The notes under the pieces: generated by a model
What the model was told of the DNA's origin: nothing
The model's input: the letters and a program-made list of their open reading frames with translations, nothing else
The model's database searches: none
Translations under genes and position numbers: made by a program
From: an uncultured Thermodesulfobacteriota bacterium
Lineage (GTDB): Bacteria; Desulfobacterota; GWC2-55-46; JADFVP01
DNA length: 64,000 nucleotides
NCBI GenBank assembly: GCA_964567185.1
Contig: CAZMKZ010000002.1
Location: forward strand, 4,466-68,465
Reading direction: 5' to 3'
Shown here: in pieces, positions 2,370-64,000 of the stretch
Position numbering within the stretch: position 1 is the stretch's first letter
How the letters are laid out: each line of letters opens with the position of its first letter

Positions 2370-2567
2370 TCACGTCTTGAAGACCTTATCCTTCTCGGAT
2401 ATATTGAGCCCCAGGGCCTTTATTATCTTACGCTTCGTATCGAGCCTGCAGGGAAAACCCTTTTCAATCCTGTCTATGGTCAGCGTCGATAGTCCCGCCT
2501 TTCTCGCAAGCTCAGTCTTGCTTAAAAGGATACGTTCTCTATACTCTTTTAATGTATTTTTCGACAT
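2370..2567 (-). CDS. XRE-family helix-turn-helix transcriptional regulator, 65 aa
   Basis: HTH_3 signature LSKTELARKAGLSTLTIDRIEKG. It lies 12 nt upstream of pilM on the same strand. Confidence 0.75.
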   Translation of the reverse strand: MSKNTLKEYRERILLSKTELARKAGLSTLTIDRIEKGFPCRLDTKRKIIKALGLNISEKDKVFKT

Positions 2568-4620: not shown

Positions 4621-7600
4621 TCAGTTACAGCTCGTAGTTGACTGGGTGGTATTCTTATCAATGCCCGTAATACCGCAGTTTGCGTCCGTAAAGGCGCTCC
4701 TTGAAGCCGTGAGGCTCACGTTGATGGTCTTGTCATGATAGAGCTGGCCGGCGGCATATGTATATGTGCCGGGGTTCTGGCTGTCCTCCACCATTGTGCC
4801 GGTCTCCACCGTAGCGGCAGGCAGGCCCGTTATCACCGCCGATATCTTGGCCCCTGAGACAGGTAGCGAGTTTTCATCGGTAAGCACCACGGTGAGGCTC
4901 ACATTCTGGCCGCCGCTTCCGGTCCTGTCAACGGTCATGGCCTCCTTGAACCTCGAGTCCTGGTCATATGTATAGATACCCACGGAGGGCTCGGGCTGGA
5001 TATCATAATTGGCGTTGCTGTCCGTCATCATTACGTAATACCAGACCCTCTTGCCCGTGAGGGTTGGGATATGACTTGATGTGCAGGCCCCTGAAGAGGC
5101 CGTCTCATATGTATTTGTACTGCCCACCTGGCACATGGTAACGGCATTCCACCCTGAGGGAGTCGAGGAATAATCCGTAGCCGGAGCGGAAAAAGTAGTC
5201 TTATCCGTTGTGCTGTAGTAGAGCGTAGCCCCGGTTACAGCTATGCCGGTATCAGGGCTCACCGTGTCCTCAACGCTCACGTCATAGGATGTCCATGTGT
5301 AATTAGGGTCCTGGGTCCCCGTCTCCACGGTTACGTTCGCCGGGTTCACATTGGATATAGTGGGTGTTACGGGCCTGTCCTGCACGCTACCCGTTATGGT
5401 GGGTCCTACGGTCACGGGCACGGTAAAGGTGCTCGAATTGCAGGCCGCGCCGTCAAGGTCATTTGTATAGTTAAGGGTTACTATTATATTTTCGGAGCGC
5501 ATGTCCACGTAACCGGTCCCCGCGGAATCCCTGAAGTCGAGGGTGAACTCGTTGAGGCCCGTCGAGCCGTTAAGCCTCCTCAGCGAGGCCGTGGGCTCAA
5601 AGGTGGCAAAATCAACTACAAAGCCCGATGCCACGTCCGTATTGTTCCAGAGCGTATTGGCGCTGCCGCCAAAGGGTTTTAATACTACCTTGTGGAGCTT
5701 TGCCGTAGCATTGGCCCAGACAAAGGTAGCCGAGTTTATGGTAACAGAGCTATTTCCCGTGTTCTGTATCCCAATGGTTACCACGTTGTGCTGACCGCCG
5801 TTCAGCGGCGGGCTCACCGTGCCCGAAGTTACTACGGTGATAGCGGGATCCCAGGTTATGTTTGTGGGCATGACCGTCACCTCGGGGGAACTTGCGACGC
5901 TCTCATTAAGGGCGCAGTCAAGGGCCTTCACCGTGTAATAATAGGTGGTGCCCGCCGTTACCGTACTGTCGGCGTAACTCGTTGCCGTTACAGGCATGGA
6001 GTTGATCTTGGTATAAGGGCCGCCCGAAGTTGTGGCCCTGTACACATAGTACCCCACCACGTCGTTCTCCGAGGCTGGATTGAAGAGGTTTCCGTTCTCA
6101 CTGCCCGCAGAGGCCGTCCAGTTAACCGTGGACGTTGAGCACGTGGCCGTGGTAAGACTCGCCGGCGCCGATGGCGGCCCATAGTGCTTGGAGCCGGGCG
6201 AGCCGTCGCCGCAGGGGGCGGCCGTGGCCAGAGACGTGGCCCCTGCGCTGAAGTTTCCGCACCTGTCGTAGGCAAAGGCCCTGTAGTAATAGGTAGTGCC
6301 GAGGTATATCCCGTACGTATCTATAAGGGGATAGGTCTGCGCGGGAACAAGGGGCTCATAGTCCTTTACGTTGTTTGGTCCCACGGCGCCGGAGTCCTGC
6401 GCGCTCACGGGATACTGGTCCGTTCTTCGCAGTATCCTCACACCCTTGAGATCCGTGTCCGTGGGCGTTGCGTCGCTCATATATATCTTGTCCGAGGCCG
6501 GAACCGCAAGAAAGGGCGTGGGGTCGGCAGGCGGCACGGTCTCAAAGGGGCTCGTATTTGTCAGGCCGCTTGTGGGCGTGTCCGTGCCGCTCTTGGAACC
6601 ATCACCATAAACACCGCTCTGCATTGACAAGTTCTTTTCATTACCGGCGCAATCCCAGGAAAGAACCCTGTATATGAAGGGATAGGAAGGACAATTCGTT
6701 ACGGTAATATCGGCGTAGGTCAGGTGAGTGGAATCCAGCTCCGCCACCTGCGCGTATGTATCCCCGCCGTCATCGCTCCTGTAGACATGGTAGCCGCCCG
6801 TGTCTACGGAGACGCTGGGGTCCCAGGTCAGGGTCACAAGGCCGTCGCCGGCCGTGGCGTCAGTATTCGTCGGCAAATCAGGGCTCGTAACGTCATTTGG
6901 CTTTGTGTCCGCGGTTCCGCCCGTACCCGATATGGGCGTGGTAAAGGAGGTGTTCACATTGCCCGATGTGTCGTAACACTTCATGGCTATGTCATATTGA
7001 GTGCCGTTGGTAAGGCCCGTAAGGGTATAGGACTCCGTGGACCCGCCCGGAATATCTATAAGGCCCGTATAAAAACCCGCTCCAGTCGGCTTGTAATACA
7101 CCTTGTACCCCGCGGCGTCGGAGCTTGAGCTCTTTGTCCACGCCAGGTTAAGCCTGCCGCAGAGACCCGGGTCTGTTGACTGAATATTGGTGGGAAGGGC
7201 GCACTCCGTAACGTCCGTGGATTGCTGTATCCCCATGCACCTTAGCGAAACACTTGTTTCGAGGTTTACGGTATCTATCTTGTTGGTAGCTGGGTTGGGG
7301 TACTCCGTGGAGGCCGTAAGGGCTATGCCCACCCTGCGTATCCTGTCCCTGTTGGCCTGCGACTGTATGGGGGCCGGGATAAGCGCGCCCGTTTCGTCGT
7401 AATAGGTAAACTGAAGCCCCGTGATGTTGCCAGCAAGGTCAACGCCTGTGCCGTAGGCCCCGTAGCTGCTGCCGCTCCATACGGCGGAACTCCTCATTAA
7501 CTCTTTTGCCGCCGCGTCAAGCTCGTACTTTATCTTCCATGGTCCCAGATTGGGGTCAGGGTCCGAGTCGGACTCGAACTCAAGGACAGTGGAGTCGGCT

Positions 7601-8288: not shown

Positions 8289-8905
8289 GCCGTTAATATC
8301 TTCACGCGGCCGCTTGCCGATGATACGGTAACCTTGTACTTGTCCGCGCTGTTGGCAGAGCCGTTCAGCTTTATCTCGGCAAGGGTGGCCGAGCCAAAGG
8401 GGTCAAAGGCAATTACCGCCGTGGTTCCGGTAGTATATGTAACTCCCCCTACGGTGACGCTGAATATATTCACTCCAGCCTCAAGGTCTTTTGCCGCTAT
8501 CTGCGGGTCCGCTGTCCATGGGTCCGTATCAGCGGCCCTTGTTACTACAAGATACCTCTTCGGAGCGGCGTCAAGGTCAAAACGCACGCCATACTTCTGC
8601 GTTGAGTTCACCGCCTTGCTCCTTGCGTACTGGAGCATGGAAAAGATATCCCTTGATGTGCTCTTGAGTTTCATATGGGGAAAGGTGGACGTCAAGAATG
8701 TAGGCGCGGCTATGGCGATGAGGGTGCCGAATATGGCCAGGACCACGAGTATCTCAACGAGGCTGAAGCCTCTCTGTGCCTTTTTCCCCCACCGGCGCGC
8801 CCTTCCGGAGCACCTGAGGGACAAAATCCCCATGAGGCCGAAAGCCCCTTGCAGGGGCGCCGCCGGAATACCGGCCTGTCTTCTGTTATCAACTGAACTC
8901 TTCAT
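8282..8905 (-). CDS. FimT/GspH-like T4P minor pilin with an unusually long (about 45 aa) leader
   Basis: QRGFSLVEILVVLAIFGTLIAIA pilin motif. A strong SD (AAGGAG) sits 7 nt before the ATG at 8905. An alternative internal start at MGILSL cannot be excluded. Confidence 0.65.
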   Translation of the reverse strand: MKSSVDNRRQAGIPAAPLQGAFGLMGILSLRCSGRARRWGKKAQRGFSLVEILVVLAIFGTLIAIAAPTFLTSTFPHMKLKSTSRDIFSMLQYARSKAVNSTQKYGVRFDLDAAPKRYLVVTRAADTDPWTADPQIAAKDLEAGVNIFSVTVGGVTYTTGTTAVIAFDPFGSATLAEIKLNGSANSADKYKVTVSSASGRVKILTAW

Positions 8906-8947
8906 AAAATACTCCTTACCATGGGTATATTCCCGTCATATAAACAA

Positions 8948-8962
8948 GCAACACCTGTGCCA
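8948..8962 (-). promoter_or_regulatory. sigma54 (RpoN) -24/-12 promoter for the minor-pilin operon
   Basis: The minus strand reads TGGCAC-AGGTG-TTGC, an exact consensus with 5-nt spacing. The predicted TSS near 8937 is about 30 nt upstream of the 8905 start. Confidence 0.75.
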
Positions 8963-8971
8963 AAGCATAAC

Positions 8972-9017
8972 CAACTGAAAAAAAAAGAGTTTTCCCCCAT
9001 GAGAGAGGGGAAAACTC
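8972..9017 (-). terminator. Rho-independent terminator of pilS-pilR
   Basis: An 11-bp perfect stem (gagttttcccc / ggggaaaactc) with a 9-nt loop, followed on the minus strand by nine Ts. It lies just downstream of the pilR stop. Confidence 0.8.
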
Positions 9018-9079
9018 CGCAAAGTTTTCACAAGTTGATTACTTTTTATATGAATGCGCCCCCTTTTCAGGAGGCCATC

Positions 9080-10432
9080 TCAGAGACCGTAGGTCTTTAT
9101 CTTGTACAGAAGCGCCCTCTGGCTTATCTCCAGGAGCTCAGCGGCGCGGGTCTTGTTGTTCTTGGTGGCCTCAAGGGCCCTCTTTATAAAGTCCCTTTCC
9201 ATGGCCTCGTGGGCCTTTTTAATGGAAAGGCCCACTGAAGACCCATCTCCGGGGTCCACCCTCGGTGAGGATACGCCCATTGGAAGAGATGACTTTTGTA
9301 TGAGATTGGCCTCCTCAAGTATCATGGCCCTCTCAATGACGTTCTCCAACTCGCGGACATTGCCGGGCCAGCCGTACTTCAGCAGGGCCCCAAGGGCGTC
9401 CTTCGAGAGGCCCTTCACCTTTTTTCTGAACTTTTTCGCGTACTTGCCGGTAAAATACGCGGCAAGCCTCTCTATATCTCCGGGCCTCTCCCGAAGCGGA
9501 GGCAAATCTATCTCAATGACGTTAAGCCTGTAATAAAGGTCTTCCCTGAACCTGCCCTTGCGTATCTCCCCGGCAAGGTCCTTGAGCGTGGCCGCCACTA
9601 CCCGCGTATCTATCTTCACGGACTTTGTGCCGCCCACACGCCTTATCTCGCCCTCCTGCAGGACGCGCAGGAGCTTTACCTGAAGCTCCATGGGCAGTTC
9701 GCCCACCTCGTCAAGGAATATGGTGCCTCCCACGGCCTCCTCGAAGAGCCCGGCCTTGTCGCGTCTGGCGTCCGTAAAGGCGCCCTTCACATGACCGAAG
9801 AGCTCGCTCTCAAGAAGGGGGCCGGGTATGGCCCCGCAGTTGACCGCCACAAAAGGCCCTCCAACGCGCTCCCCGCAGGTATGCAGGGCACGGGCCACAA
9901 GCTCCTTGCCCGTGCCGCTCTCGCCGCTTATGAGAACGGTGGTGCTGTAACTGGCTACCTTCTTTACAAGCTCCAGTATATCAAGCATCCTCGCGTCAAC
10001 GGTTATTATGTTATTAACGTCAAAACGCCGGGCAACCTCCTTCTTGAGCCTCCTGTTCTCCCGCTTGAGCTTTTCCCTCTCCTCGGCCTTTCTGAGGGTA
10101 AGTATAATTTCATCGGACTTGAAGGGCTTGGAGACGTAATCATAGGCCCCGAGCTTCATGCACTCTATGGCCGTCTCAATAGTGCCGTAGGCGCTCATCA
10201 TGATAACGGTATGATCTCCCGTCTTGCTCTCCTTGAGGGATCTAAGAAACTCAAGGCCGTCCATCTTGGGCATGCGTATGTCGCAGAGGATAAAGTCAAA
10301 GTCATCGGAGGCCAGGGCCTTGAGGGCGCGTGAGGCGTCTGCAAAGGCAGTGGCGTCATAACCCTCCCTCTTAAGCATTAAAGAGAGCACATGGCGCAGG
10401 CTCTCCTCGTCGTCTATAATCATAACATTCAT
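9080..10432 (-). CDS. pilR: Sigma54-dependent response regulator, NtrC family, PilR-like
   Basis: Receiver domain (IIDDE...DIRMP), AAA+ sigma54 activator domain (GESGTGKELVARALH, GAFTDA), and a C-terminal Fis-type HTH. Confidence 0.85.
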   Translation of the reverse strand: MNVMIIDDEESLRHVLSLMLKREGYDATAFADASRALKALASDDFDFILCDIRMPKMDGLEFLRSLKESKTGDHTVIMMSAYGTIETAIECMKLGAYDYVSKPFKSDEIILTLRKAEEREKLKRENRRLKKEVARRFDVNNIITVDARMLDILELVKKVASYSTTVLISGESGTGKELVARALHTCGERVGGPFVAVNCGAIPGPLLESELFGHVKGAFTDARRDKAGLFEEAVGGTIFLDEVGELPMELQVKLLRVLQEGEIRRVGGTKSVKIDTRVVAATLKDLAGEIRKGRFREDLYYRLNVIEIDLPPLRERPGDIERLAAYFTGKYAKKFRKKVKGLSKDALGALLKYGWPGNVRELENVIERAMILEEANLIQKSSLPMGVSSPRVDPGDGSSVGLSIKKAHEAMERDFIKRALEATKNNKTRAAELLEISQRALLYKIKTYGL

Positions 10433-11967
10433 CTTTGTCCCCTCCCGCAGGGCAATCTTACCGTAAAGGTAGAGCCCTCTGCCACCTTTGATTCAAAATC
10501 TATCTGCCCGCCGTAGGTCTTCAGGATGCTCTCTGAGACAAAAAGACCGAGCCCCGTGCCTTTTCCCACCTCTTTGGTCGTATAAAAGGGGTCGAATATC
10601 TTTCTGGCGTCTTCCTCGCTTATGCCGGTGCCGCTGTCCTTTATCCTTACGGAGACAAAATTCCGGTAGATCTCCTCTCCGGCGCGCAGGGGTTTGTCGC
10701 CCTTGCGCCTGCGAAGATTCGCGCCCTTGACGGGCATCTTCTGGAGCTGTGACTCCACCACTATCTCTCCGGCGCCGTCGGCGGCGCTCATGGATTGAGC
10801 AGCGTTTACGAGGAGATTGATAAAAACCTGCCTCAGCTTGCCCTCGTTTATCTTTACCGCAGGAAGGCTATCGCCAAGGCTGGTCTTAAGGACAATATCC
10901 TTGAAATCGGGATGTCCCTCAAGGCCGGCGATACTCTCAAGGAGCAGGGCGTTCACGTCAACAGGCTGAAGGGGTTTTTTCTCGGCCCTTGAAAACTCCA
11001 GAAATTCCCTCAATATGGAGTCTATCCTCGTAACCTCCCTGCCCGCCCTTACTATTATATCCTTCTCATCGGCGCTATCAAGAGAGCCGCTCTCAAGTAT
11101 CTGAAGATACCCGCCCACGGCTCCCAGCGGGTTGCCTATCTCGTGTGCTATACCGGCGGCAAGCCTTCCCACGGCCGCCAGCGTCGAAGACCTAAGGACC
11201 TCTTCCTGCGCGCTCACAAGCTCGCTATTGACCCTCTCAAGGGTGTTTATCTCCTCCTCTATTTTCCCGGCCATCTTGTTAAAAGACGAGGCCATAAGAC
11301 CTATCTCGTTATCGGAGTGTATATCCACCCTCTCGCCAAATGACCCTCCGGCGATGCGTGAGGCCGCCTCGGTGAGCCTTCTGATGGGGTTTATGATGGA
11401 GCCGGAGAGAAAGAAAAACCCGAAGCCTATTATTATGGCGCTATCCAGTATGATGTAGATTATAAGGAATTTTTTCACCCCCGCGAGCTCGCCCTTGATA
11501 TCGGCAAGCGAGATGGTGAAATCGAGGCGTCCCGCAATGGGCCCGCCATCCTTGAAGACGGCGCTTACATTGAGCAGACGCCCCGGCCCGGCCAGCCATC
11601 CGCCGCCAAGACGCCTTATCCTTATGCCGTCAAGCGCGCTTAGGGCCTTGCCGCCCCCCTCGGGCAACTCACCTTCTTTTACAACAATACGGCCCGATGG
11701 CGTGGTAAGGCGGTAGTCCCTTACCCCGGCACCGCGCATGACAACGCCGAGGAGCTGTAATGCCTTGTACTCATCGAGCCAGGGGCTTAACTTCGCCATG
11801 GATTCCCTGGCGAGGCGCGCCGTCTTTTCCGCCTCGCCGACCTTCCAGTAAAGGGCCCTCTCCTCTACAATCTTAATGCTCATGAGCCCTATGAAGCCCA
11901 CACCCGCAAGGGTGATAAGGGCGATTCCAAGCCCGAGCTGGGCGCGTATGCCTATCTTGAGGTTCAC
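10429..11967 (-). CDS. pilS: Sensor histidine kinase, PilS-like
   Basis: Two TM helices, HAMP, a HisKA H-box (AHEIGNPL) and HATPase_c (GTGLGL). It overlaps pilR by 4 nt. Confidence 0.8.
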   Translation of the reverse strand: MNLKIGIRAQLGLGIALITLAGVGFIGLMSIKIVEERALYWKVGEAEKTARLARESMAKLSPWLDEYKALQLLGVVMRGAGVRDYRLTTPSGRIVVKEGELPEGGGKALSALDGIRIRRLGGGWLAGPGRLLNVSAVFKDGGPIAGRLDFTISLADIKGELAGVKKFLIIYIILDSAIIIGFGFFFLSGSIINPIRRLTEAASRIAGGSFGERVDIHSDNEIGLMASSFNKMAGKIEEEINTLERVNSELVSAQEEVLRSSTLAAVGRLAAGIAHEIGNPLGAVGGYLQILESGSLDSADEKDIIVRAGREVTRIDSILREFLEFSRAEKKPLQPVDVNALLLESIAGLEGHPDFKDIVLKTSLGDSLPAVKINEGKLRQVFINLLVNAAQSMSAADGAGEIVVESQLQKMPVKGANLRRRKGDKPLRAGEEIYRNFVSVRIKDSGTGISEEDARKIFDPFYTTKEVGKGTGLGLFVSESILKTYGGQIDFESKVAEGSTFTVRLPCGRGQR

Positions 11968-11982
11968 GGGAATAAGACCGCC

Positions 11983-12768
11983 TTAAAAACCTTGAGTCAC
12001 ACTTCTTATATACCACTCTATCAAAGAGCCGCCATAAAAAAAATAAACCGTCGCGCCTATGGCCAGAAATGGTCCGAAGGGCAAGGCGTATTTACTGTCC
12101 CTTGAAAAGAGGACCATGACGGCGACACCGGAGAGCGCCCCGATAATAGAGGCGCTAAAGAGCGTAAAGAGGACGCCCTTCCACCCGATAAAGGCGCCTA
12201 TCATGGCAAGAAATTTAATGTCCCCCACACCCATGCCCTCCTTGCCCGTAAGGTAGTGATAGACAAGGGCTATGCTTATGAGTATGCCGCCTCCGGCCAC
12301 TATGCCCGTAAGAGAGTCCACCACGCCCGGGGCGGGCATGAAAAAAGAGGCTATAAAGCCTATTACTATGCCGGGAAAAGTAATGACATTAAGGATAATC
12401 TTGTATTTCAGGTCTATGAAGGTACTTACGATAAGGGCGCAGAGGAAGAAAAACGGGATTACAATCCTCACATCCGGGCCGTAGCGGTAGTAGAGCGCGA
12501 TGGCGGCAAGACCGGTCAATGCCTCCACAAAGGGATATTGAATAGATATGGGGCTCTTGCACCGGCTGCACCTGCCGCGAAGGAGCAGATAACTGATAAT
12601 GGGTATATTACAGTAAAAGGGTATATACCTCTTGCAGACCGGGCACCTCGATGGCGGCGAAACGATGCTCAAGCCCTCGGGAAGGCGGTATATGCATACG
12701 TTAAGAAAACTGCCCACTATTGCACCGAATATGAACGGCAGGGCGAGGATAAGGTATTGCGGATACAA
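11983..12768 (-). CDS. pilD: Prepilin peptidase/N-methyltransferase PilD (A24 family)
   Basis: CPVCKRYIPFYCNIPIISY...RCSRCK zinc tetracysteine plus a polytopic membrane domain. Confidence 0.85.
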   Translation of the reverse strand: MYPQYLILALPFIFGAIVGSFLNVCIYRLPEGLSIVSPPSRCPVCKRYIPFYCNIPIISYLLLRGRCSRCKSPISIQYPFVEALTGLAAIALYYRYGPDVRIVIPFFFLCALIVSTFIDLKYKIILNVITFPGIVIGFIASFFMPAPGVVDSLTGIVAGGGILISIALVYHYLTGKEGMGVGDIKFLAMIGAFIGWKGVLFTLFSASIIGALSGVAVMVLFSRDSKYALPFGPFLAIGATVYFFYGGSLIEWYIRSVTQGF

Positions 12769-12838: not shown

Positions 12839-13261
12839 TCACAGTGTGTCGGGGAGGTAATCCTTTCTTATCTTTTCCACCATGGCAACTATATTGGTGG
12901 CCTGTTTTATGGCGTCCCTTGAGTCCTTTTCCGAGATAACCTCGGCCGGTATTCCGCCGGGCAGGGCATCGGGAAAGCGTGAGGTCTTGTAGTAGATGTC
13001 AAGGGACGTAGTGCCGCCCACAAAGACCTTGAAGGACTCGTCATAGGTCATGGCCCTGTCAAGGAGATCGGCCACGGACCTGGTAACAAGGGCGTCCTCT
13101 CTCTGCAGGAAGAGAAAACCCCGCAGGGCCTTTGCCGCGGACTGCTGAGCCCAGAAACAGGCCGGCGCATGAAAACCGCCCTGCTGATTCCACTCCGAAA
13201 CCTTCAGGTCATACTCTGCCTGCCGCAGCCATCTGGCCGCCTCTTTAAGAAGAATCTCCAT
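12839..13261 (-). CDS. Orphan HEPN-domain protein
   Basis: Classic HEPN N-terminal pattern (AARWLRQAEYDLKVSEW...ACFWAQQSAAKALRGFLF) and C-terminal YYKTSRFPDALP. No adjacent nucleotidyltransferase gene. Confidence 0.75.
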   Translation of the reverse strand: MEILLKEAARWLRQAEYDLKVSEWNQQGGFHAPACFWAQQSAAKALRGFLFLQREDALVTRSVADLLDRAMTYDESFKVFVGGTTSLDIYYKTSRFPDALPGGIPAEVISEKDSRDAIKQATNIVAMVEKIRKDYLPDTL

Positions 13262-56889: not shown

Positions 56890-58896
56890 ATGAGTGAAGA
56901 CAAGACAATGCAAGACGAAGGTATAGACGTTCTTTCGCATGAAAAGAGGCTTTTTCCGCCGACTCGGGCCATCTCTGAAAAGGCATACATAAAAGGCCCC
57001 GAAGAGTACGAGGCCCTTTACAACGAATCCATATCAGACCCCGAGGGCTTCTGGGCGAGGATGGCCGAAGAGCACCTTCACTGGGATAAAAAGTGGGATA
57101 AGGTCCTTGAGTATGACTTTAATGAACCGAGCGTAAAGTGGTTTATTAACGGCCGGCTTAACGCCTCGTACAACTGCCTTGACAGGCATCTTTCGTCATG
57201 GAGGCGCAACAAGGCCGCCATAATATGGGAGGGCGACGACGGCTCGTACAAGACATACACGTATCAGGAGCTACACTTTGAAGTAAACCGCTTTGCCAAT
57301 GTCCTGCAGGCCAAGGGCATAAAAAAAGGCGACCGTATCACCATATATCTGCCAATGATACCGGAGCTCGCCATAGCCATGCTCGCCGCGGCGAGGATCG
57401 GGGCCGTGCATAGCGTGGTCTTCGGCGGTTTCAGCGCGTCTTCGCTTGCCGAGAGGATTATTGATTCCGGCTCGTCTCTACTTATAACCTCTGATGAGGG
57501 GGTTCGCGGCGGAAAGCACATAGCCATGAAAAAACACGCCGATGAGGCCCTTCTTTCCTCTCACAATGTAAAAGACGTCATAGTGGTAAGAAGGACGGGC
57601 GGCGAGGTCCCCATGCAGGAAGGCCGCGACACGTGGTGGCATGACGAGGTCTCGGCACCGGGCATGAGACGCGCCTGCGCCCCCCTTGCCATGGACTCCG
57701 AAGACACCCTCTTCATACTCTACACGAGCGGCTCCACGGGAAAACCCAAGGGCGTGATTCACACAACGGGCGGGTACCTCCTCTACACGTCCCTCACCTT
57801 CAAGTGGATATTCGACTACAAGGAAGAGGACATATTCTTCTGCACCGCCGACATCGGCTGGATAACGGGGCACAGCTACATCGTATACGGCCCCCTTGCC
57901 TGCGGCGCAACGACGCTCATGTTCGAGGGTGTTCCCACATACCCCGGACCCGACAGGTTCTGGGAGATAGTGGAAAAATTCAAGATAAACATCTTCTACA
58001 CGGCCCCTACGGCCATAAGGGCGCTAATGAGGCACGGCTCCGCCCCGGTTGAGGCTCATGATCTATCGAGCCTCAAGCTCCTGGGCTCCGTGGGCGAGCC
58101 CATCAACCCCGAGGCATGGATGTGGTATCACAGCGTTGTGGGCGCCTCGAAGATACCCGTAATCGACACCTGGTGGCAGACCGAGACGGGCGGTATACTA
58201 ATAACTCCTCTACCCGGGGCCACGACGCTTAAGCCGGGTTCGGCGACAAGGCCCTTTTTCGGCGTACTGCCAAAGGCCCTTAAGGCAGACGGGACCGCGG
58301 CCAAGACCAACGAGGGCGGATGGCTTGTCATAGAAAAACCCTGGCCGGGCATGCTCCGGGGCATGTATGGAGACGAGGATAACAAACGCTTCAAGGATAC
58401 CTATTTTTCCATGTTTCCGGGCTGTTATCTAAGCGGCGACGGCGCGCGGCAGGACGAGGACGGGGACTGGTGGCTCATGGGCAGGATAGACGACGTGCTT
58501 AACGTCTCCGGGCACAGGCTCGGCACGGCGGAGATAGAGAGCGCGCTGGTATCTCACCCTCTGGTGGCCGAGGCCGCCGTGGTGGGCTACACTCACGAGG
58601 TAAAAGGCGAAGGCATATACGCCTTCGTAGTCCTTACAGAAGATGCCGATGGAGATGAGGGGCTGAAGAAGGAGCTTATAAAACATGTGGGGATAGAGAT
58701 AAGCCCCATCGCGAGACCGGATAAACTCCAGTTCGCGTTGGGGCTACCTAAGACCAGAAGCGGTAAGATAATGAGAAGGATACTGAGACAGATTGCGAGG
58801 GGCCGCACAGATGACCTTGGCGATACATCCACTCTTGCTGACCCGAGTATCGTTACAACGCTTGTTGAGGGCTCGCAGGCCGCTCAATCAAAATGA
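56890..58896 (+). CDS. acs: Acetyl-CoA synthetase (AMP-forming)
   Basis: [14 protein letters not shown]-binding motif and the acs-type N-terminus. The start was trimmed to MSEDKT. Confidence 0.93.
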
Positions 58897-59090
58897 CGCC
58901 TTGATGACTTTTTCAGGGCCTTGGCGCGGCGCTTTGCCGCTTCCTGACGCTTTCTCTTTTTCTTTACGCTTGGTTTTTCATAAAACCTTCTCTTCTTTAT
59001 CTCCTTGAAGGTTCCGTCCTGGGCCAGTTTGCGCTTGAGTATCCTGATGGCTTTTTCAAGCTGGCCTTCATAAACCTTAACCTCTGACAA
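58884..59090 (-). CDS. rpsU: 30S ribosomal protein S21
   Basis: 68 aa with a highly basic C-terminus and a typical S21 sequence. Confidence 0.92.
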
Positions 59091-59454
59091 GAAATAACAC
59101 CCCCTCTACAAAAAAATTTTCTTTTTACCATATATTGTTCGGTCCCTCTGCCGCACCTTACGCAGCGGACCCGAGACCGCTAAATCAAAACAATCTTATC
59201 GTCCGAGTGGCCCAAAAAAGACCTGCACCCCGCCTTCCACCCGACAATTGCTCTACAACAGACCTTATCACTGTTGGCGTTGATAAGCCCCATTCGCCCG
59301 GCTCATACCCACTGCCCGGCCCCGGGGAAAGATGGTGATTATAACAGAAAAAGGTTATAAGTCAAAATATTTAAAGGTTCTGTTACCTGAATCCTCAAAA
59401 AAGCAGATAACAGAGCAAGACCCTGCTGTCGAAGCGTAAGACATGCTCTACGGG

Positions 59455-59494
59455 GGTATAAAAAGACCTGCCCTGTTTTTCATAAGGCAGGTCT
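59455..59494 (-). terminator. Rho-independent terminator of the cytochrome gene
   Basis: A 9-bp stem (agacctgcc / ggcaggtct) with a 13-nt loop, followed on the minus strand by TTTTTAT. Confidence 0.75.
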
Positions 59495-59525
59495 TGATTC
59501 AATCACCCTCAGGGGTGAATAATTT

Positions 59526-60551
59526 TTATTTATCGTGACAGGTTCTGCAGACTCCGCTACCGGTATTGCCGCCAACCCTTCTAAGGAAAAAGCCGTCAAC
59601 GCAATCCTCGCCGCTGCACCAGAACTGAAAAGAGGCTCCGTTCGAGTGATTGGCATACTGGTATGTGCTGTCCACCTCATCGTAGCTGAGGTTACGGAAG
59701 TGCGGGTCGTGGCATGAACTGCACTCCACCTTGTTGTTCCTCAAGAGAGAGCCTATGGTAGCCGTGCTTGAGATAAAGCCCGATACGGCCCAACGGTTCT
59801 GCGAGAGGTTGTTAACAAAAAAAGGCGTTGTATTAAGAAGGCCGGCAGAGAGGTCGATATTGCCTATTACTGTGCTCGTAGGCCTGAGGCTCGCCTTTGA
59901 TGAGGCCGAGTAAGGTATGGAAACGGGGTGGTCGTTTGAAAGGTCAACTCCAATATTGAGGCTCTGCACCGTATCTCCGGTGGCAAACGACGGACTTGCG
60001 CCATGGCATGTAAGACAACTGGTGGGGCTTGTAGGTGTATTAGTATTAAAATGGTCAAAATCAGTGCTTTGATAAGTAGTACCCGGCATGCTGAAGGACC
60101 AGTTCTGGTCTGCGCCTCCCGGCACAACGCCGCCCTTACCCGGGGCGTTTACAAGGCTATCGAAGGTAGTGACGCCGTCATGACAGCTCAGGCAGGCCAG
60201 TGTTGCCCCTCCGAGGTCGGCGCTATTAACGTTGGTTCCGGCTATGGTGGAACCATAGCCGATATAGCTTGATGAGTTGGCAGTAGACCTGTTCCAGAGA
60301 GGGGCTGCCGTTGTATTGGAATGATGGGGAGTATGACAAAAGATACATACCTGAGTAGTGGCGCCTGTCCTTAAAACCCTGCCGAATTTGCCAAGGTTGT
60401 GCCTTGACATCAGGATGCCATTGGCCACTACGCCATCCGGATAATCGGACACCGTGGTAGCCGCCGATGAGATACCCGGCCCTAAAAACACTACGGCCGT
60501 AAGCACCGCTATGGTTGTCAATAATAATCTTTTCATAATATTATCCCCCAC
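59526..60551 (-). CDS. Secreted pentahaem c-type cytochrome
   Basis: Signal peptide plus five CxxCH motifs (CIFCH, CLSCH, CLTCH, CSSCH, CRTCH). Confidence 0.85.
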   Translation of the reverse strand: MGDNIMKRLLLTTIAVLTAVVFLGPGISSAATTVSDYPDGVVANGILMSRHNLGKFGRVLRTGATTQVCIFCHTPHHSNTTAAPLWNRSTANSSSYIGYGSTIAGTNVNSADLGGATLACLSCHDGVTTFDSLVNAPGKGGVVPGGADQNWSFSMPGTTYQSTDFDHFNTNTPTSPTSCLTCHGASPSFATGDTVQSLNIGVDLSNDHPVSIPYSASSKASLRPTSTVIGNIDLSAGLLNTTPFFVNNLSQNRWAVSGFISSTATIGSLLRNNKVECSSCHDPHFRNLSYDEVDSTYQYANHSNGASFQFWCSGEDCVDGFFLRRVGGNTGSGVCRTCHDK

Positions 60552-60853
60552 CCATACACTAACAGCCGCCCTACTTTTTTATCGGGTTTCCACAACGCCT
60601 GATCTCTGAAAAAATAAAAAAGCCATCCTTACGACCTGTGCGGCTCGTAGAATGGCATTCATTACCCCGCGCCCTTAAGCCCTCCATGAGCGTAAGGATC
60701 TTTATGTACAAACACTATCTTAATTAACATTTTAATGATTTGAGGTCAAAAGTCAAGACAAATTTATCTTTTTTTAATAAAAATTATAAATTATTTTAAA
60801 AAAACCGCCCAACCACCCTTTTTTTGAAAGAAAAGTGTAATCAGCGGTAGCCC

Positions 60854-62380
60854 TCATGAAAAGGACTTTAATTTTCTGCATCTCTTCGGATGTCTCAGCT
60901 TTCGGAGCGCCTTTGCCTCTATCTGGCGTATCCTCTCCCTTGTTACCTCAAAATAGGCGCCCACCTCCTCAAGCGTATGGTCCCTTGTCTCGCCTATGCC
61001 GAACCTCATCCTCAGGACCTTTTCCTCTCTTGGCGTAAGCGTTGAGAGGACCTCGTTCATGCGTCCCGTAAGGTCATTGAGCATCATCTCGTCATGGGGG
61101 ACAGAGGCGTCCTTATCCTCTATGAAGTCTCCGAGAAGGCTGTCCCCGTCTTCTCCCACAGGCGTCTCAAGAGAGATGGGCTCCTTGGCCATCTTTAGGA
61201 TCTTTCTCACCTTATCCACGGGCAGGAGCAGGGACTCTCCGAGCTCTTCCACGGTTGGCTCCCTGCCGCGGTTCTGCACAAAATAATGAACCGTGCGAAG
61301 GAGTTTATTTATGGTCTCTATCATATGGACCGGTATGCGTATGGTCCTTGCCTGATCCGCTATGGCGCGCGAGATGGCCTGACGTATCCACCATGTGGCG
61401 TATGTGGAAAACTTGTACCCGCGCCTGTACTCGAACTTCTCTACGGCGCGCATCAGGCCTATATTGCCTTCCTGGATAAGGTCCATGAACTGCAGGCCCC
61501 TGTTCAGATACCTTCTCGCTATGCTCACCACAAGGCGGAGATTGGACTTTATGAGCAGTTCCCTTGCCGCCCCTATCTCGTGTTCATGAAGACATATGGC
61601 AGTAAGCGTATTCCCCAGGCCCTCATAGTCAAGGCCCACCCTGGCGGCAAGCTCCTCTTCTCTCTTATGGTTCTGCCGGGCCTCACACATCACATCCTTA
61701 ATGGTCCTGCCGCGCAACAGCGGCCCTGCCGGACCCTTGCCGCCTTTTTCGGCGCGGGCCACCATGTTCTCAAGGCGCCGTATCTTTCTCCTTATCCTCT
61801 TGAAATCCCCCTCATATCCCGTAAGCCTCTCAATGGACGCTCCGAAGATATTACTGCGTTTATCTATGTCAAGGAGAAGGTTAAGGCACTTCTCTGTCGG
61901 TCTCTTGCCGGCCTTCCAACTTGCCGCGGACCTGCCGTAAATCTTCTTTATATTATCTATCTTATGGAATACATCCTGAAGGTCTGACTCCGCCTCGCTT
62001 AAAATCCTCTCATCGTCGTCATATTCTATTACCTCACGGCCCTCGGAGCTTTTCCCCCGTAGCCTCTCCTTAAGCGAATCAAGTTCTTCTATTATCACCT
62101 TCGTCTTCAGCAACTCTATGGCCACGCCGAACATGCCCTGCTCAACGGTCCTGGCAAGACGCACCTCTTCGTCCCGCGTAAGGAGCCGTACGGCACCCAT
62201 CTCTTTCAAGTAGGCCCTTACAGGGTCTTTGACGGCGCTGGGCTGCGCCACGGCAAGGGGCGGGGCGGACTGAATGGGTTCGGAGGCCACAGGCCTTGCG
62301 GGCATGGCCTTGACTGCCTTCTTATCCCCCTGCATATCTCTTGATCTAGCCATAATAAAAGTATCGAACCATACAGGCAA
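60854..62380 (-). CDS. rpoD: RNA polymerase sigma factor RpoD (sigma70)
   Basis: Regions 1.2 through 4 are present. Confidence 0.95.
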
Positions 62381-62395
62381 AAGATGAAGGAAAAC

Positions 62396-64000
62396 TTAGC
62401 GGCCTTTTTTCTCTATCCTCTTCTTTATCTCTTGTGCAAGCTCAGCCTGCCCCGAGTCTGCAAGCCTGCCGAGCATCTCCTTTGTAGCCTTCTTAAGTTT
62501 ACCCCTGTTCAGTATCTTTTTCAAACTATCTTTGAGCATCTTCTCCGGGTCCCCTATAAAGTCGTCATCGTCCCTTAAGAGCCCTGTCTTTATAAAACCG
62601 TCAATCTCAGCCCCGTGCAGGGCCTCGGCTATCTCATCAATCCTTACGGGGCCGGGACCCTCCATGGCCTCGCATATAATGGCCCCCGCCTTTTTAAGGC
62701 CATTGTCCCTGAACGCGGCCACGGCCTCACGGGCCTCAAGACAGTATAGATCAGGCCGGTTAACGAGAACCTTCAATACCGTAAACTCCACGAGGGTCGA
62801 GCCCCTTAGCGAGGCGATGCTGGCGGCCCGTGGCGCGGCATGGGCCTTTGCCTTTACCCCGGGACGCGCCGCGCCGGAACGCAGGGCCTCGTAGACCGAG
62901 GCGGGCGGCATCTGCAGAAGAGAGGCCACATAAGAGGCGTAGTGGTCCCTCTCCGCCACATTCGCCAACCTTGATATATACTGCAACGCGCCCTCAAAAA
63001 AAGCGGCCTTACCCTCGGGGCCTGTAATATCAAGGCTTGACTCCAGCCTCTTGAGATAAAACTCCAGTATGGGCACGGCGGACTTCAAGACCTTTTTCAT
63101 CTCCCCGGGGCCTTTATTCAGCAAAAATTCATCGGGGTCCTTGGCCCCTGTAAGGGCGACAACACGGCATCTCATATCCTCATCAATAAAGAGCTCCATA
63201 CTCCTCAGGGCCGCCTTTACCCCGGCCTCATCGGCGTCAAAAAGGGTATAAATGCTCCCGGCATATCCACGCAGTATCCTTATATGCCCCTTTGTAAGCG
63301 CCGTTCCAAGGGTGGCCACCGTGTTGGTGAACCCCGCGGAATGCATGGCCAGCAAGTCAAAATACCCCTCAACAACGATGGCAGAGCCAAGCTCCTTTAT
63401 GGCCGGGCCGGCCTGCGATAACCCGAAAAGGGTCTCGCCCTTCTTGAAAAGCTCTGTCTCCGGCGAGTTCAGATACTTTGGCCCACGCTCTCCAAGCTCC
63501 CTGCCGCCAAAACCTATAATCCTCTCTCTAATATCTGTTATGGGAAAGATGAGCCTCTCTCTGAACCTGTCGTAATAGCCCTTATCCCCCCTGCTTACAA
63601 GCCCTGCCTTTGCGGCGAGCCCCGCTGGATATCCTGCCCTCTCAAGATAACGGACGAGGCCGCTCCACCCCGGCGGGGCGTAGCCAAGGGCAAAACGCTC
63701 AAGAAGCCCCCTGTCCTTAAAACCCCTTTTTTGGAGATATTTCCTTGCATTCGCGCCCTCGCCGGAAAAAAGCCTCTTTACAAAGTAATCCCTTGCCGCA
63801 CTGTTAACCTGATAGAGAGAATCCTTTTGGCCGCCTCTTTTTCCCCTATCCTCCTTTATGGTGACGCCGCAACGCGAGGCCAACTCCCTCACGGCATCGG
63901 GAAAGGGCAGGCCGTCTTTTTTCATAAGAAAGGTGATGGCGCTTCCTGTCTCATGACAGCCGAAACAGTGAAATATCTTCTTATCCTCATTAACGGAAAA
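62396..64000 (-). CDS. dnaG: DNA primase DnaG (N-terminus runs off the window end)
   Basis: TOPRIM domain. The in-frame extension to the window edge encodes the zinc finger FSVNEDKKIFHCFGCHETGSAITF. Confidence 0.9.
   Translation of the reverse strand, partial: FSVNEDKKIFHCFGCHETGSAITFLMKKDGLPFPDAVRELASRCGVTIKEDRGKRGGQKDSLYQVNSAARDYFVKRLFSGEGANARKYLQKRGFKDRGLLERFALGYAPPGWSGLVRYLERAGYPAGLAAKAGLVSRGDKGYYDRFRERLIFPITDIRERIIGFGGRELGERGPKYLNSPETELFKKGETLFGLSQAGPAIKELGSAIVVEGYFDLLAMHSAGFTNTVATLGTALTKGHIRILRGYAGSIYTLFDADEAGVKAALRSMELFIDEDMRCRVVALTGAKDPDEFLLNKGPGEMKKVLKSAVPILEFYLKRLESSLDITGPEGKAAFFEGALQYISRLANVAERDHYASYVASLLQMPPASVYEALRSGAARPGVKAKAHAAPRAASIASLRGSTLVEFTVLKVLVNRPDLYCLEAREAVAAFRDNGLKKAGAIICEAMEGPGPVRIDEIAEALHGAEIDGFIKTGLLRDDDDFIGDPEKMLKDSLKKILNRGKLKKATKEMLGRLADSGQAELAQEIKKRIEKKGR

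Follow-up and report, generated by a model that had tools for sequence, protein, structure and literature searches.

A predicted sigma-54 promoter and a candidate enhancer between a two-component regulator gene and a minor-pilin operon in uncultured Thermodesulfobacteriota

Control of pilA, which encodes the major pilin, by sigma-54 together with a PilR-type regulator is a classical arrangement. Can a system of this kind act directly on minor-pilin genes? The question is raised by a locus within 64 kb of a metagenome contig (JGI 3300023444) from an uncultured Thermodesulfobacteriota bacterium, and this whole stretch is called the window here. At the locus, the gene of an NtrC-type response regulator is followed, on the same (minus) strand, by four genes for type IV minor pilins. 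Such proteins prime the assembly of the pilus, sit at its tip, and set what it binds. An earlier note on this DNA had proposed that a sigma-54 promoter with exact consensus, located behind the terminator of a “pilS-pilR” operon, drives a minor-pilin operon. The reading that we favour, with a probability of about 70%, is that the adjacent regulator activates a sigma-54 promoter of the minor-pilin operon through a conserved block of upstream DNA; it is based on comparisons of DNA and protein sequences.

The promoter motif and its conservation

The motif is located on the minus strand at 8962-8948, exactly where and as the earlier note had described it: TGGCAC (8962-8957), the spacer aggtg, and TTGC (8951-8948), followed by a T, i.e. 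TTGCW. Within TGGCACaggtgTTGCT (8962-8947), GG and GC are exactly 10 nucleotides (nt) apart in the frame TGGCAC-N5-TTGCW, as is typical of sigma-54 promoters. The predicted transcription start is at about 8936-8937. The C of the -12 element is 42 nt away from the ATG (8905) of the first, GspH/FimT-like pilin gene, which is preceded by the Shine-Dalgarno sequence AAGGAG at 8917-8912.

The number of matches was compared with chance levels. The exact motif TGGCAC-N5-TTGC occurs once on the two strands of the window, with 0.13 matches expected, and at least one match was found in 12 of 100 shuffled sequences. Allowing one mismatch resulted in four matches, compared to 3.85 expected for the window, which is chance level; the candidates at 2991, 26373, and 52065 are inside genes or far from gene starts and were rejected. 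The motif by itself is not significant, and the case for it consists of placement and conservation. It lies in an intergenic gap of 174 nt, has the correct orientation, and adjoins the only sigma-54 activator gene of the window. Near the operon start, a sigma-70-like sequence was matched only once (8757-8730, 9 of 12 positions), within the first gene.

Related loci were retrieved via homologues of the first pilin gene and of the regulator. Sixteen further syntenic loci were found, all in metagenome-assembled genomes labelled Thermodesulfobacteriota or “Deltaproteobacteria”. Clade A comprises nine loci (the window, L003-L009, and L018), and clade B consists of L016, L017, and L019-L024, with L017 holding only the last 23 nt of the regulator gene. 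The regulators of clade A are 83-89% identical, with a synonymous identity of only ~0.55, and the values for the regulators of L019-L024 are 65-72%. TGGyAy-N5-TTGC precedes the first pilin gene in all 16 related loci, and six clade-B loci have exactly 65 nt between the regulator stop codon and the -24 element. The spacers of the two clades are unalignable, apart from an upstream element, a TTA that belongs to a site resembling those of integration host factor (IHF), and the promoter. The distant GspH-like loci L010-L015 (~30% identity) have no comparable promoter; TGGCAC-N5-TTGT in L011 and L015 lacks the -12 GC and was rejected.

One locus separates the promoter from the regulator gene. In L022, two unrelated genes are inserted after the regulator, and the promoter is found 1.6 kb downstream, directly before the pilin genes, together with a perfect WATCAA-N4-TTA (TATCAAGCAGTTA) and the element TTCATAGT, which contains a CATAGTT half-site, at altered spacing. 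Because the promoter module has stayed with the pilins, away from the regulator, it belongs to the pilin operon. The inserted DNA (7360-9000 of L022) contains a Uma2-family gene and an unknown gene of 169 amino acids (aa).

Placement and cross-locus footprint make it very likely that the promoter is functional. That it serves as the sigma-54 promoter of the minor-pilin operon, as the earlier note had claimed, is highly probable.

Terminator, conserved block, and IHF-like site in the spacer

The gap between the regulator gene and the promoter harbours a terminator. The earlier note had reported a strong one, with an 11-bp stem and nine Us, at the end of the two-component transcript, and both the hairpin and the T9 run were recovered. 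The hairpin, GGAGTTTTCCCCT-ctctcat-GGGGGAAAACTCT, begins 61 nt after the regulator stop codon (TGA, 9082-9080), and its stem of 11 bp (13 pairs counting G-U) includes 6 G-C pairs. Compensatory changes were found in four of the 13 stem pairs and none is broken (8 sequences). Folding energies range from -19.5 to -23.7 kcal/mol in the nine clade-A loci, with about -22 kcal/mol for the window, and the T9 run is interrupted only in L007 (longest run 6). A G+C-containing hairpin directly followed by a U-run past a stop codon, and compensatory change within its stem, are the features of an intrinsic terminator. In contrast, seven clade-B loci have no hairpin followed by a T-run, and their folding energies are -2 to -6 kcal/mol, except for L020, which has a hairpin without a T-run. 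The terminator evidently arose within clade A and formed in situ, in a spacer that kept its length. It insulates the minor-pilin operon of clade A, while read-through from the regulator gene into the pilin genes is possible in clade B.

The second element of the spacer is a conserved block (9049-9011), which reads ATAAAAAGTAATCA..TTGTGAAAAsTTTGCGGAGTTTT and is near-invariant in the nine clade-A loci. The 35 nt between block and stop codon, the loop and inner stem of the hairpin, and the region downstream of the -12 element diverge in the same loci. The 3′ part of the block (GGAGTTTT, its 3′ 8 nt) is the left arm of the terminator. Building the hairpin in place would account for an outer stem that is invariant while the inner stem covaries.

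All loci were aligned gap-free leftwards from the promoter. The block is then collinear within 1 nt with gATAAAAAGTTACGGACTATGA/AAAAAGTGCATAGTTT of clade B, which covers the seven final codons of the regulator gene, the stop codon, and the 16 nt that open the spacer. Clade B has a dyad of 21 bp, ACTATGmA-N5-TkCATAGT, centred at -88/-89. Five of its seven loci match at 7-8 of 8 positions: the dyad of L016 and L023 is perfect, and that of L019, L021, and L024 has 7 of 8. For comparison, 12 of 16 matches to the dyad were reached by 23 of 5100 random 90-nt windows. The search for upstream activator sites in the 3′ region of the regulator gene, which the earlier note had suggested as a check, was thus productive, i.e. 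the conserved dyad of the relatives overlaps the regulator stop codon. The regulator of clade A, and independently that of L023, ends further upstream, and the homologous stretch is non-coding and yet kept, so that coding constraint cannot explain the conservation. We infer that the block, the best enhancer candidate, is the binding site of the regulator.

Rfam searches of the whole window at gathering thresholds, and of 8700-9300 at E-values up to 5, gave nothing credible, so that the block belongs to no known RNA family. Additional copies in the window were sought and rejected: GAAAASTTTGCGGAG matches only at chance level, and the excess matches to AAAAAGTAATCA fall into the Lys-rich rpsU coding region and other A-rich, non-regulatory sequence. 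The 7-mer AAAAAGT, which is common to three lineages (2% of shuffles), was a lead that has been superseded by the collinear alignment. In L007, about 150 nt (5592-5740) are inserted just past the regulator stop codon, and within them a further sigma-54-like motif, TGGCAGgtctcTTGC, precedes the conserved block.

Between terminator and promoter, the 16 loci with standard spacing all have a TTA at the same offset, with its end 5 nt ahead of TGGCAC. It is part of a perfect WATCAA-N4-TTA in L016, L021, and L024; the site of L022 is also perfect at its different offset (all judged by eye, without statistics). The weaker version of the window, TTTCAGTTGGTTA, is preceded by the T9 run. An enhancer about 60 nt away from the promoter would need a sharp bend of the DNA, and either an IHF site or an intrinsically bent T-tract would fit.

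The regulator, the proposed activation, and its alternatives

The regulator has a complete NtrC-type architecture. Its Pfam matches are Response_reg (7e-31), Sigma54_activat (2e-69), and HTH_8 (3e-10), and both the acceptor Asp (D51) and the Walker A motif GESGTGKE are present. The closest solved structures are those of Aquifex aeolicus NtrC1 and NtrC4 (E-values 7e-106 to 7e-93), which share the full-length receiver/AAA+/helix-turn-helix (HTH) architecture; their targets are unrelated and the similarity is silent on DNA specificity. Among the NCBIfam models, the two-component pair is nearest to AtoS/AtoC, with the regulator scoring best against AtoC/NtrC models, below the cut-offs, and in its sequence sources it is labelled AtoC or, generically, a sigma-54 regulator.

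The kinase gene overlaps the regulator start by 4 nt. Its product has a periplasmic stretch of ~130 aa between two hydrophobic segments, and a HAMP domain, in contrast to PilS, which senses PilA and has six membrane segments. The earlier note was correct in describing a two-component operon, but the identification of the kinase as PilS does not stand, and “pilS-pilR” is a label by genomic context. A near-consensus sigma-70-like TTGATA-16-TATAAT (11 of 12 positions) at 11054-11081 of the minus strand lies inside the kinase gene; it could give the regulator gene and the 3′ part of the kinase gene a transcript of their own, or be a chance match.

In the proposed mechanism, the kinase, with its periplasmic sensor domain, would phosphorylate the regulator that is encoded immediately upstream of the pilin operon. 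The regulator would bind to the block, at about -113 to -75, with the core site centred at -88, and DNA looping, aided by the T9 tract or the IHF-like site, would bring it to the closed sigma-54 holoenzyme. It would then open the promoter with ATP, and transcription would start near 8936-8937 and cover all four genes, i.e. the GspH/FimT-like, PilV-like, giant PilW-like, and large PilX-like ones. The terminator between enhancer and promoter would block read-through from the pilD/kinase/regulator operon, and consequently the minor pilins of clade A would be expressed only on activation.

Several observations weigh against this mechanism. The dyad symmetry at -88 is poor in the window itself (3 of 8), and synonymous-site conservation along the regulator gene has no outlier and no excess at the 3′ end. 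The sigma-54 contact loop is GAFTDA in 16 of 16 orthologues and differs from the canonical GAFTGA; for Desulfovibrio vulgaris activators, GAFTDA is listed among the variants expected to keep activity (PMC4641369). The genes for RpoN and IHF are absent from the 64-kb window. A supporting detail, namely that the recognition helix is ISQR in all clade-A regulators, with the half-site TGCGGAGT, and ISHR in clade B, with the half-site TkCATAGT in six of seven loci, is a single evolutionary event and only a lead. Part of the conservation reflects common ancestry, as all loci belong to one lineage. The regulator might also have other or additional targets, e.g. an unlinked pilA.

The alternative that fares best accepts the promoter and doubts the block, which would be either a decaying duplicate of the regulator 3′ end, kept as the left arm of the terminator, or an RNA 3′-end element. 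The activator would then have its true site at another place or need no specific site at all, as some activators work from solution. The homology of the block to the ancestral regulator 3′ end, the 8 nt that it shares with the hairpin, and the lack of good dyad symmetry in clade A are in agreement with this view. However, the 5′ part of the block, ATAAAAAGTAATCA, is outside of the hairpin and is near-invariant in nine loci next to 35 nt that diverge, L023 has independently retained a non-coding copy whose dyad is perfect, the CATAGTT half of L022 has remained at the pilin promoter at a great distance from the regulator gene, and no Rfam family matches. We regard this alternative as unlikely, although it deserves to be taken seriously.

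Still less probable is activation of a genuine sigma-54 promoter by an enhancer-binding protein encoded elsewhere, with the adjacent regulator controlling other genes such as an unlinked pilA. Activators can work from distant genes, the classical PilR target is pilA (PMC6058289; PMC2725144), and the weak symmetry of the window site would be compatible with this arrangement. Yet regulator gene, conserved block, and promoter travel together in 15 of the 16 loci, the putative clade-B site extends over the stop codon of the regulator itself, at a fixed 65 nt from the promoter, the change of the recognition helix parallels that of the half-site, and the 64 kb contain no other activator. A non-functional chance motif, with transcription of the operon by read-through (for which the terminator-free clade B leaves room) or from a sigma-70 promoter, is very improbable in spite of the 12% of shuffles with an exact match, because the motif has a fixed position in 16 of 16 loci while the surrounding spacer is unalignable between the clades, a strong covarying terminator lies directly upstream in clade A, and the sole sigma-70-like match near the operon start is inside the first gene.

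Gene neighbourhood, related systems, and significance

The coordinates of the features are compiled in Table 1. On the minus strand, the gene order is secA, argJ, a HEPN-domain gene, pilD, kinase, regulator, the four pilin genes, a 65-aa HTH gene, pilM, pilN, and pilO; pilP and pilQ come next on the contig. The remainder of the 64 kb is devoted to housekeeping functions (arginine synthesis, hslUV, xerC, lepA, lepB, hisS, rpoD, dnaG, and others). The window contains no second sigma-54 activator gene and no pilB, pilT, or pilC. It also has no pilA, as the earlier note had stated for the vicinity of the operon: a six-frame scan for prepilin N-termini returned only the three pilin-like genes of the operon.

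Table 1. Features of the locus (positions in the window; aa, amino acids)
Feature	Position	Strand	Remarks
Large PilX/GspK-like protein, 559 aa	2896..4575	minus	PilX N-terminal domain; last operon gene
Giant PilW/GspJ-like minor pilin, 1072 aa	4621..7839	minus	N-terminal methylation motif, then fibronectin type III repeats
PilV/GspI-like minor pilin, 148 aa	7842..8288	minus	
GspH/FimT-like minor pilin, 207 aa	8282..8905	minus	First operon gene; 45-aa leader before G/FSLVE
Predicted sigma-54 promoter core	8948..8962	minus	TGGCAC (-26 to -21), N5, TTGC (-15 to -12)
IHF-like site TTTCAGTTGGTTA	8968..8980	minus	Weak match to WATCAR-N4-TTR, one core mismatch, by eye
Intrinsic terminator of pilD/kinase/regulator transcript	8978..9018	minus	Hairpin 9018-8986 and T9 8986-8978
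Conserved upstream block ATAAAAAGTAATCAACTTGTGAAAACTTTGCGGAGTTTT, candidate enhancer	9011..9049	minus	About -113 to -75; ~40 nt
Candidate 21-bp site CTTGTGAA-aactt-TGCGGAGT	9034-9014	minus	Centre -88
NtrC-type response regulator, 450 aa	9080..10432	minus	Receiver, sigma-54 AAA+, Fis-type HTH; presumed activator
Sensor histidine kinase	10429..11967	minus	Two membrane segments, periplasmic domain, HAMP, HisKA, HATPase
Prepilin peptidase PilD	11983..12768	minus	First pilus gene of upstream transcription unit

The operon has a minor-pilin set of four consecutive genes in GspH/I/J/K-like order, with the domains N_methyl and GspH, N_methyl (PilV), N_methyl, and PilX_N. A domain scan detected no PilY1 domain in the window operon. 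The first pilin has an unusually long leader (8771-8905) of variable sequence. Most clade-A relatives have 35-49 aa here, compared with only 9-15 aa for L016 and L017; the long form is supported because the distance from -12 to the ATG (41-43 nt) and AAGGAG are conserved. The earlier note had spoken of giant tip proteins: their sizes are as large as claimed, while a location at the tip is presumed from the known role of minor pilins. When the two giant proteins were searched by sequence against the PDB, nothing but fibronectin type III matches or noise was returned, and no homologue of known structure was detectable for the PilX_N protein, which has a Cys/His-rich stretch, CTTCNGDHHHDHHGTYNH, as a possible metal site.

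The gene content behind the promoter differs between the relatives. L019 and L022 encode small PilV, PilW, and PilX proteins together with PilY1. In the clade of the window as well as in L016 and L017, PilY1 is lacking, and the PilW-like and PilX-like proteins are ~1070 and ~550 aa long, respectively. L020, L021, L023, and L024 combine a 1418-1492-aa protein with a PilX-like one of ~420 aa. Across the cassettes without PilY1, the giant PilW-like proteins range from 1066 to 1492 aa, and by analogy with the established role of minor pilins they plausibly replace PilY1 as the tip adhesin.

Further observations concern the neighbouring DNA. A G+C-rich hairpin of 11 bp, CTCCCCGCCGG-caagg-CCGGCGGGGAG (2849-2823, minus strand), lies 47 nt past the stop codon of the PilX-like gene and lacks a T-run; the sigma-54 transcript may end here, though the hairpin is not a canonical intrinsic terminator. 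Between the operon and pilM, a perfect palindrome of 28 nt, TATACGTAATTAT-ac-ATAATTACGTATA (2716-2689, minus strand), and a sigma-70-like motif upstream of pilM (TTGACA at 2664-2659, 17 nt, then TAAAAA(T), minus strand) were found; the 65-aa HTH_3 gene (2370-2567, minus strand) has the same position in every relative that extends far enough. Palindrome, motif, and gene look like the operator/promoter of a small repressor that is co-transcribed with pilMNOPQ. The 140-aa HEPN-domain gene (12839-13261, minus strand) is located between argJ and pilD in every relative, is 90-95% identical in clade A, and has no evident partner nucleotidyltransferase gene. A gene for a multihaem c-type cytochrome of 341 aa (59526-60551) lies between rpoD and rpsU in the dnaG-rpoD-...-rpsU region (58884-63925, minus strand).

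The nearest known systems are PilS-PilR and the pilR-pilA locus of Geobacter, which have in common with the window an NtrC-type, sigma-54-dependent two-component system within a type IV pilus cluster (PMC2725144; PMC6058289). In Geobacter, pilR lies immediately upstream of the sigma-54-dependent pilA, and adjoining positions of activator genes and sigma-54 targets are the rule (PMC2725144). The window likewise has a -24/-12 promoter directly downstream of the regulator gene and in front of a pilin gene. It differs in the target, which is a GspH/PilV/PilW/PilX-like set instead of pilA. In Pseudomonas, the direct target of PilS-PilR is the major pilin promoter, unlike the minor-pilin operon that adjoins the regulator here. 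The locus may work like the Geobacter pilR-pilA locus, with a minor-pilin set in the place of pilA and another type of sensor.

The minor-pilin operon of P. aeruginosa, fimU-pilVWXY1Y2E, is controlled by AlgZ(FimS)-AlgR and Vfr; AlgR and Vfr sites are described at the fimU promoter, and RpoN and PilR are never mentioned (PMC8787478). An effect of PilR on the minor pilins of this species was judged to be indirect (PMC6058289). The window would share with AlgZR the two-component control of a minor-pilin/priming operon apart from the major pilin. The two cases differ in the regulator: AlgR is a member of the LytTR family and not a sigma-54 activator.

For Xanthomonas oryzae pv. oryzae, GG-N10-GC motifs have been described upstream of most pilus units, including the fimT unit, and most units are down in rpoN2 and pilRX mutants; direct binding of RpoN2 was found only for the pilR, pilA, and pilC promoters (PMC7170775). 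The effect on the fimT unit may therefore be indirect. Here, in contrast, the minor-pilin promoter shows the complete consensus, and the cluster has no other sigma-54 site. In the related phylum of D. vulgaris, DVU2114 is a sigma-54-dependent response regulator of pilin genes, with a conserved motif before pilin and pilus-assembly operons (PMC3333781; PMC4641369). It is also a two-component sigma-54 activator, but its targets resemble Tad/Flp (Cpa-type) pili and not a type IVa minor-pilin set, and its loop is GAFTGA instead of GAFTDA.

Control of pilus genes by sigma-54 and two-component systems is known, and the new aspect, direct control of a minor-pilin operon, is a modest variant. All components are of known kinds, and the advance is incremental and will not surprise specialists. 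The locus provides a concrete, testable pair of enhancer and promoter for an uncultured group, and an example of a terminator that would have arisen inside an enhancer-promoter spacer with the geometry undisturbed.

A wider reading can be offered tentatively, at slightly less than even odds. The regulated step of this lineage would be the priming/tip complex, and not the major subunit, and a single periplasmic signal would be translated into both pilus initiation and the tip adhesin. This would be achieved by a module of fixed geometry, i.e. a 21-bp activator dyad (-88) that lies over the activator stop codon, then an IHF-like site, then, at exactly 65 nt from the stop, a -24/-12 promoter, placed before an exchangeable cassette. 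Some genomes have the PilY1 type of this cassette, and others the giant PilW/PilX type that lacks PilY1; in clade A, the spacer would have been turned into a terminator at unchanged length. If this is true, pilus initiation and tip identity would be the controlled step in the lineage, and the periplasmic domain of the kinase would be the place to seek the signal.

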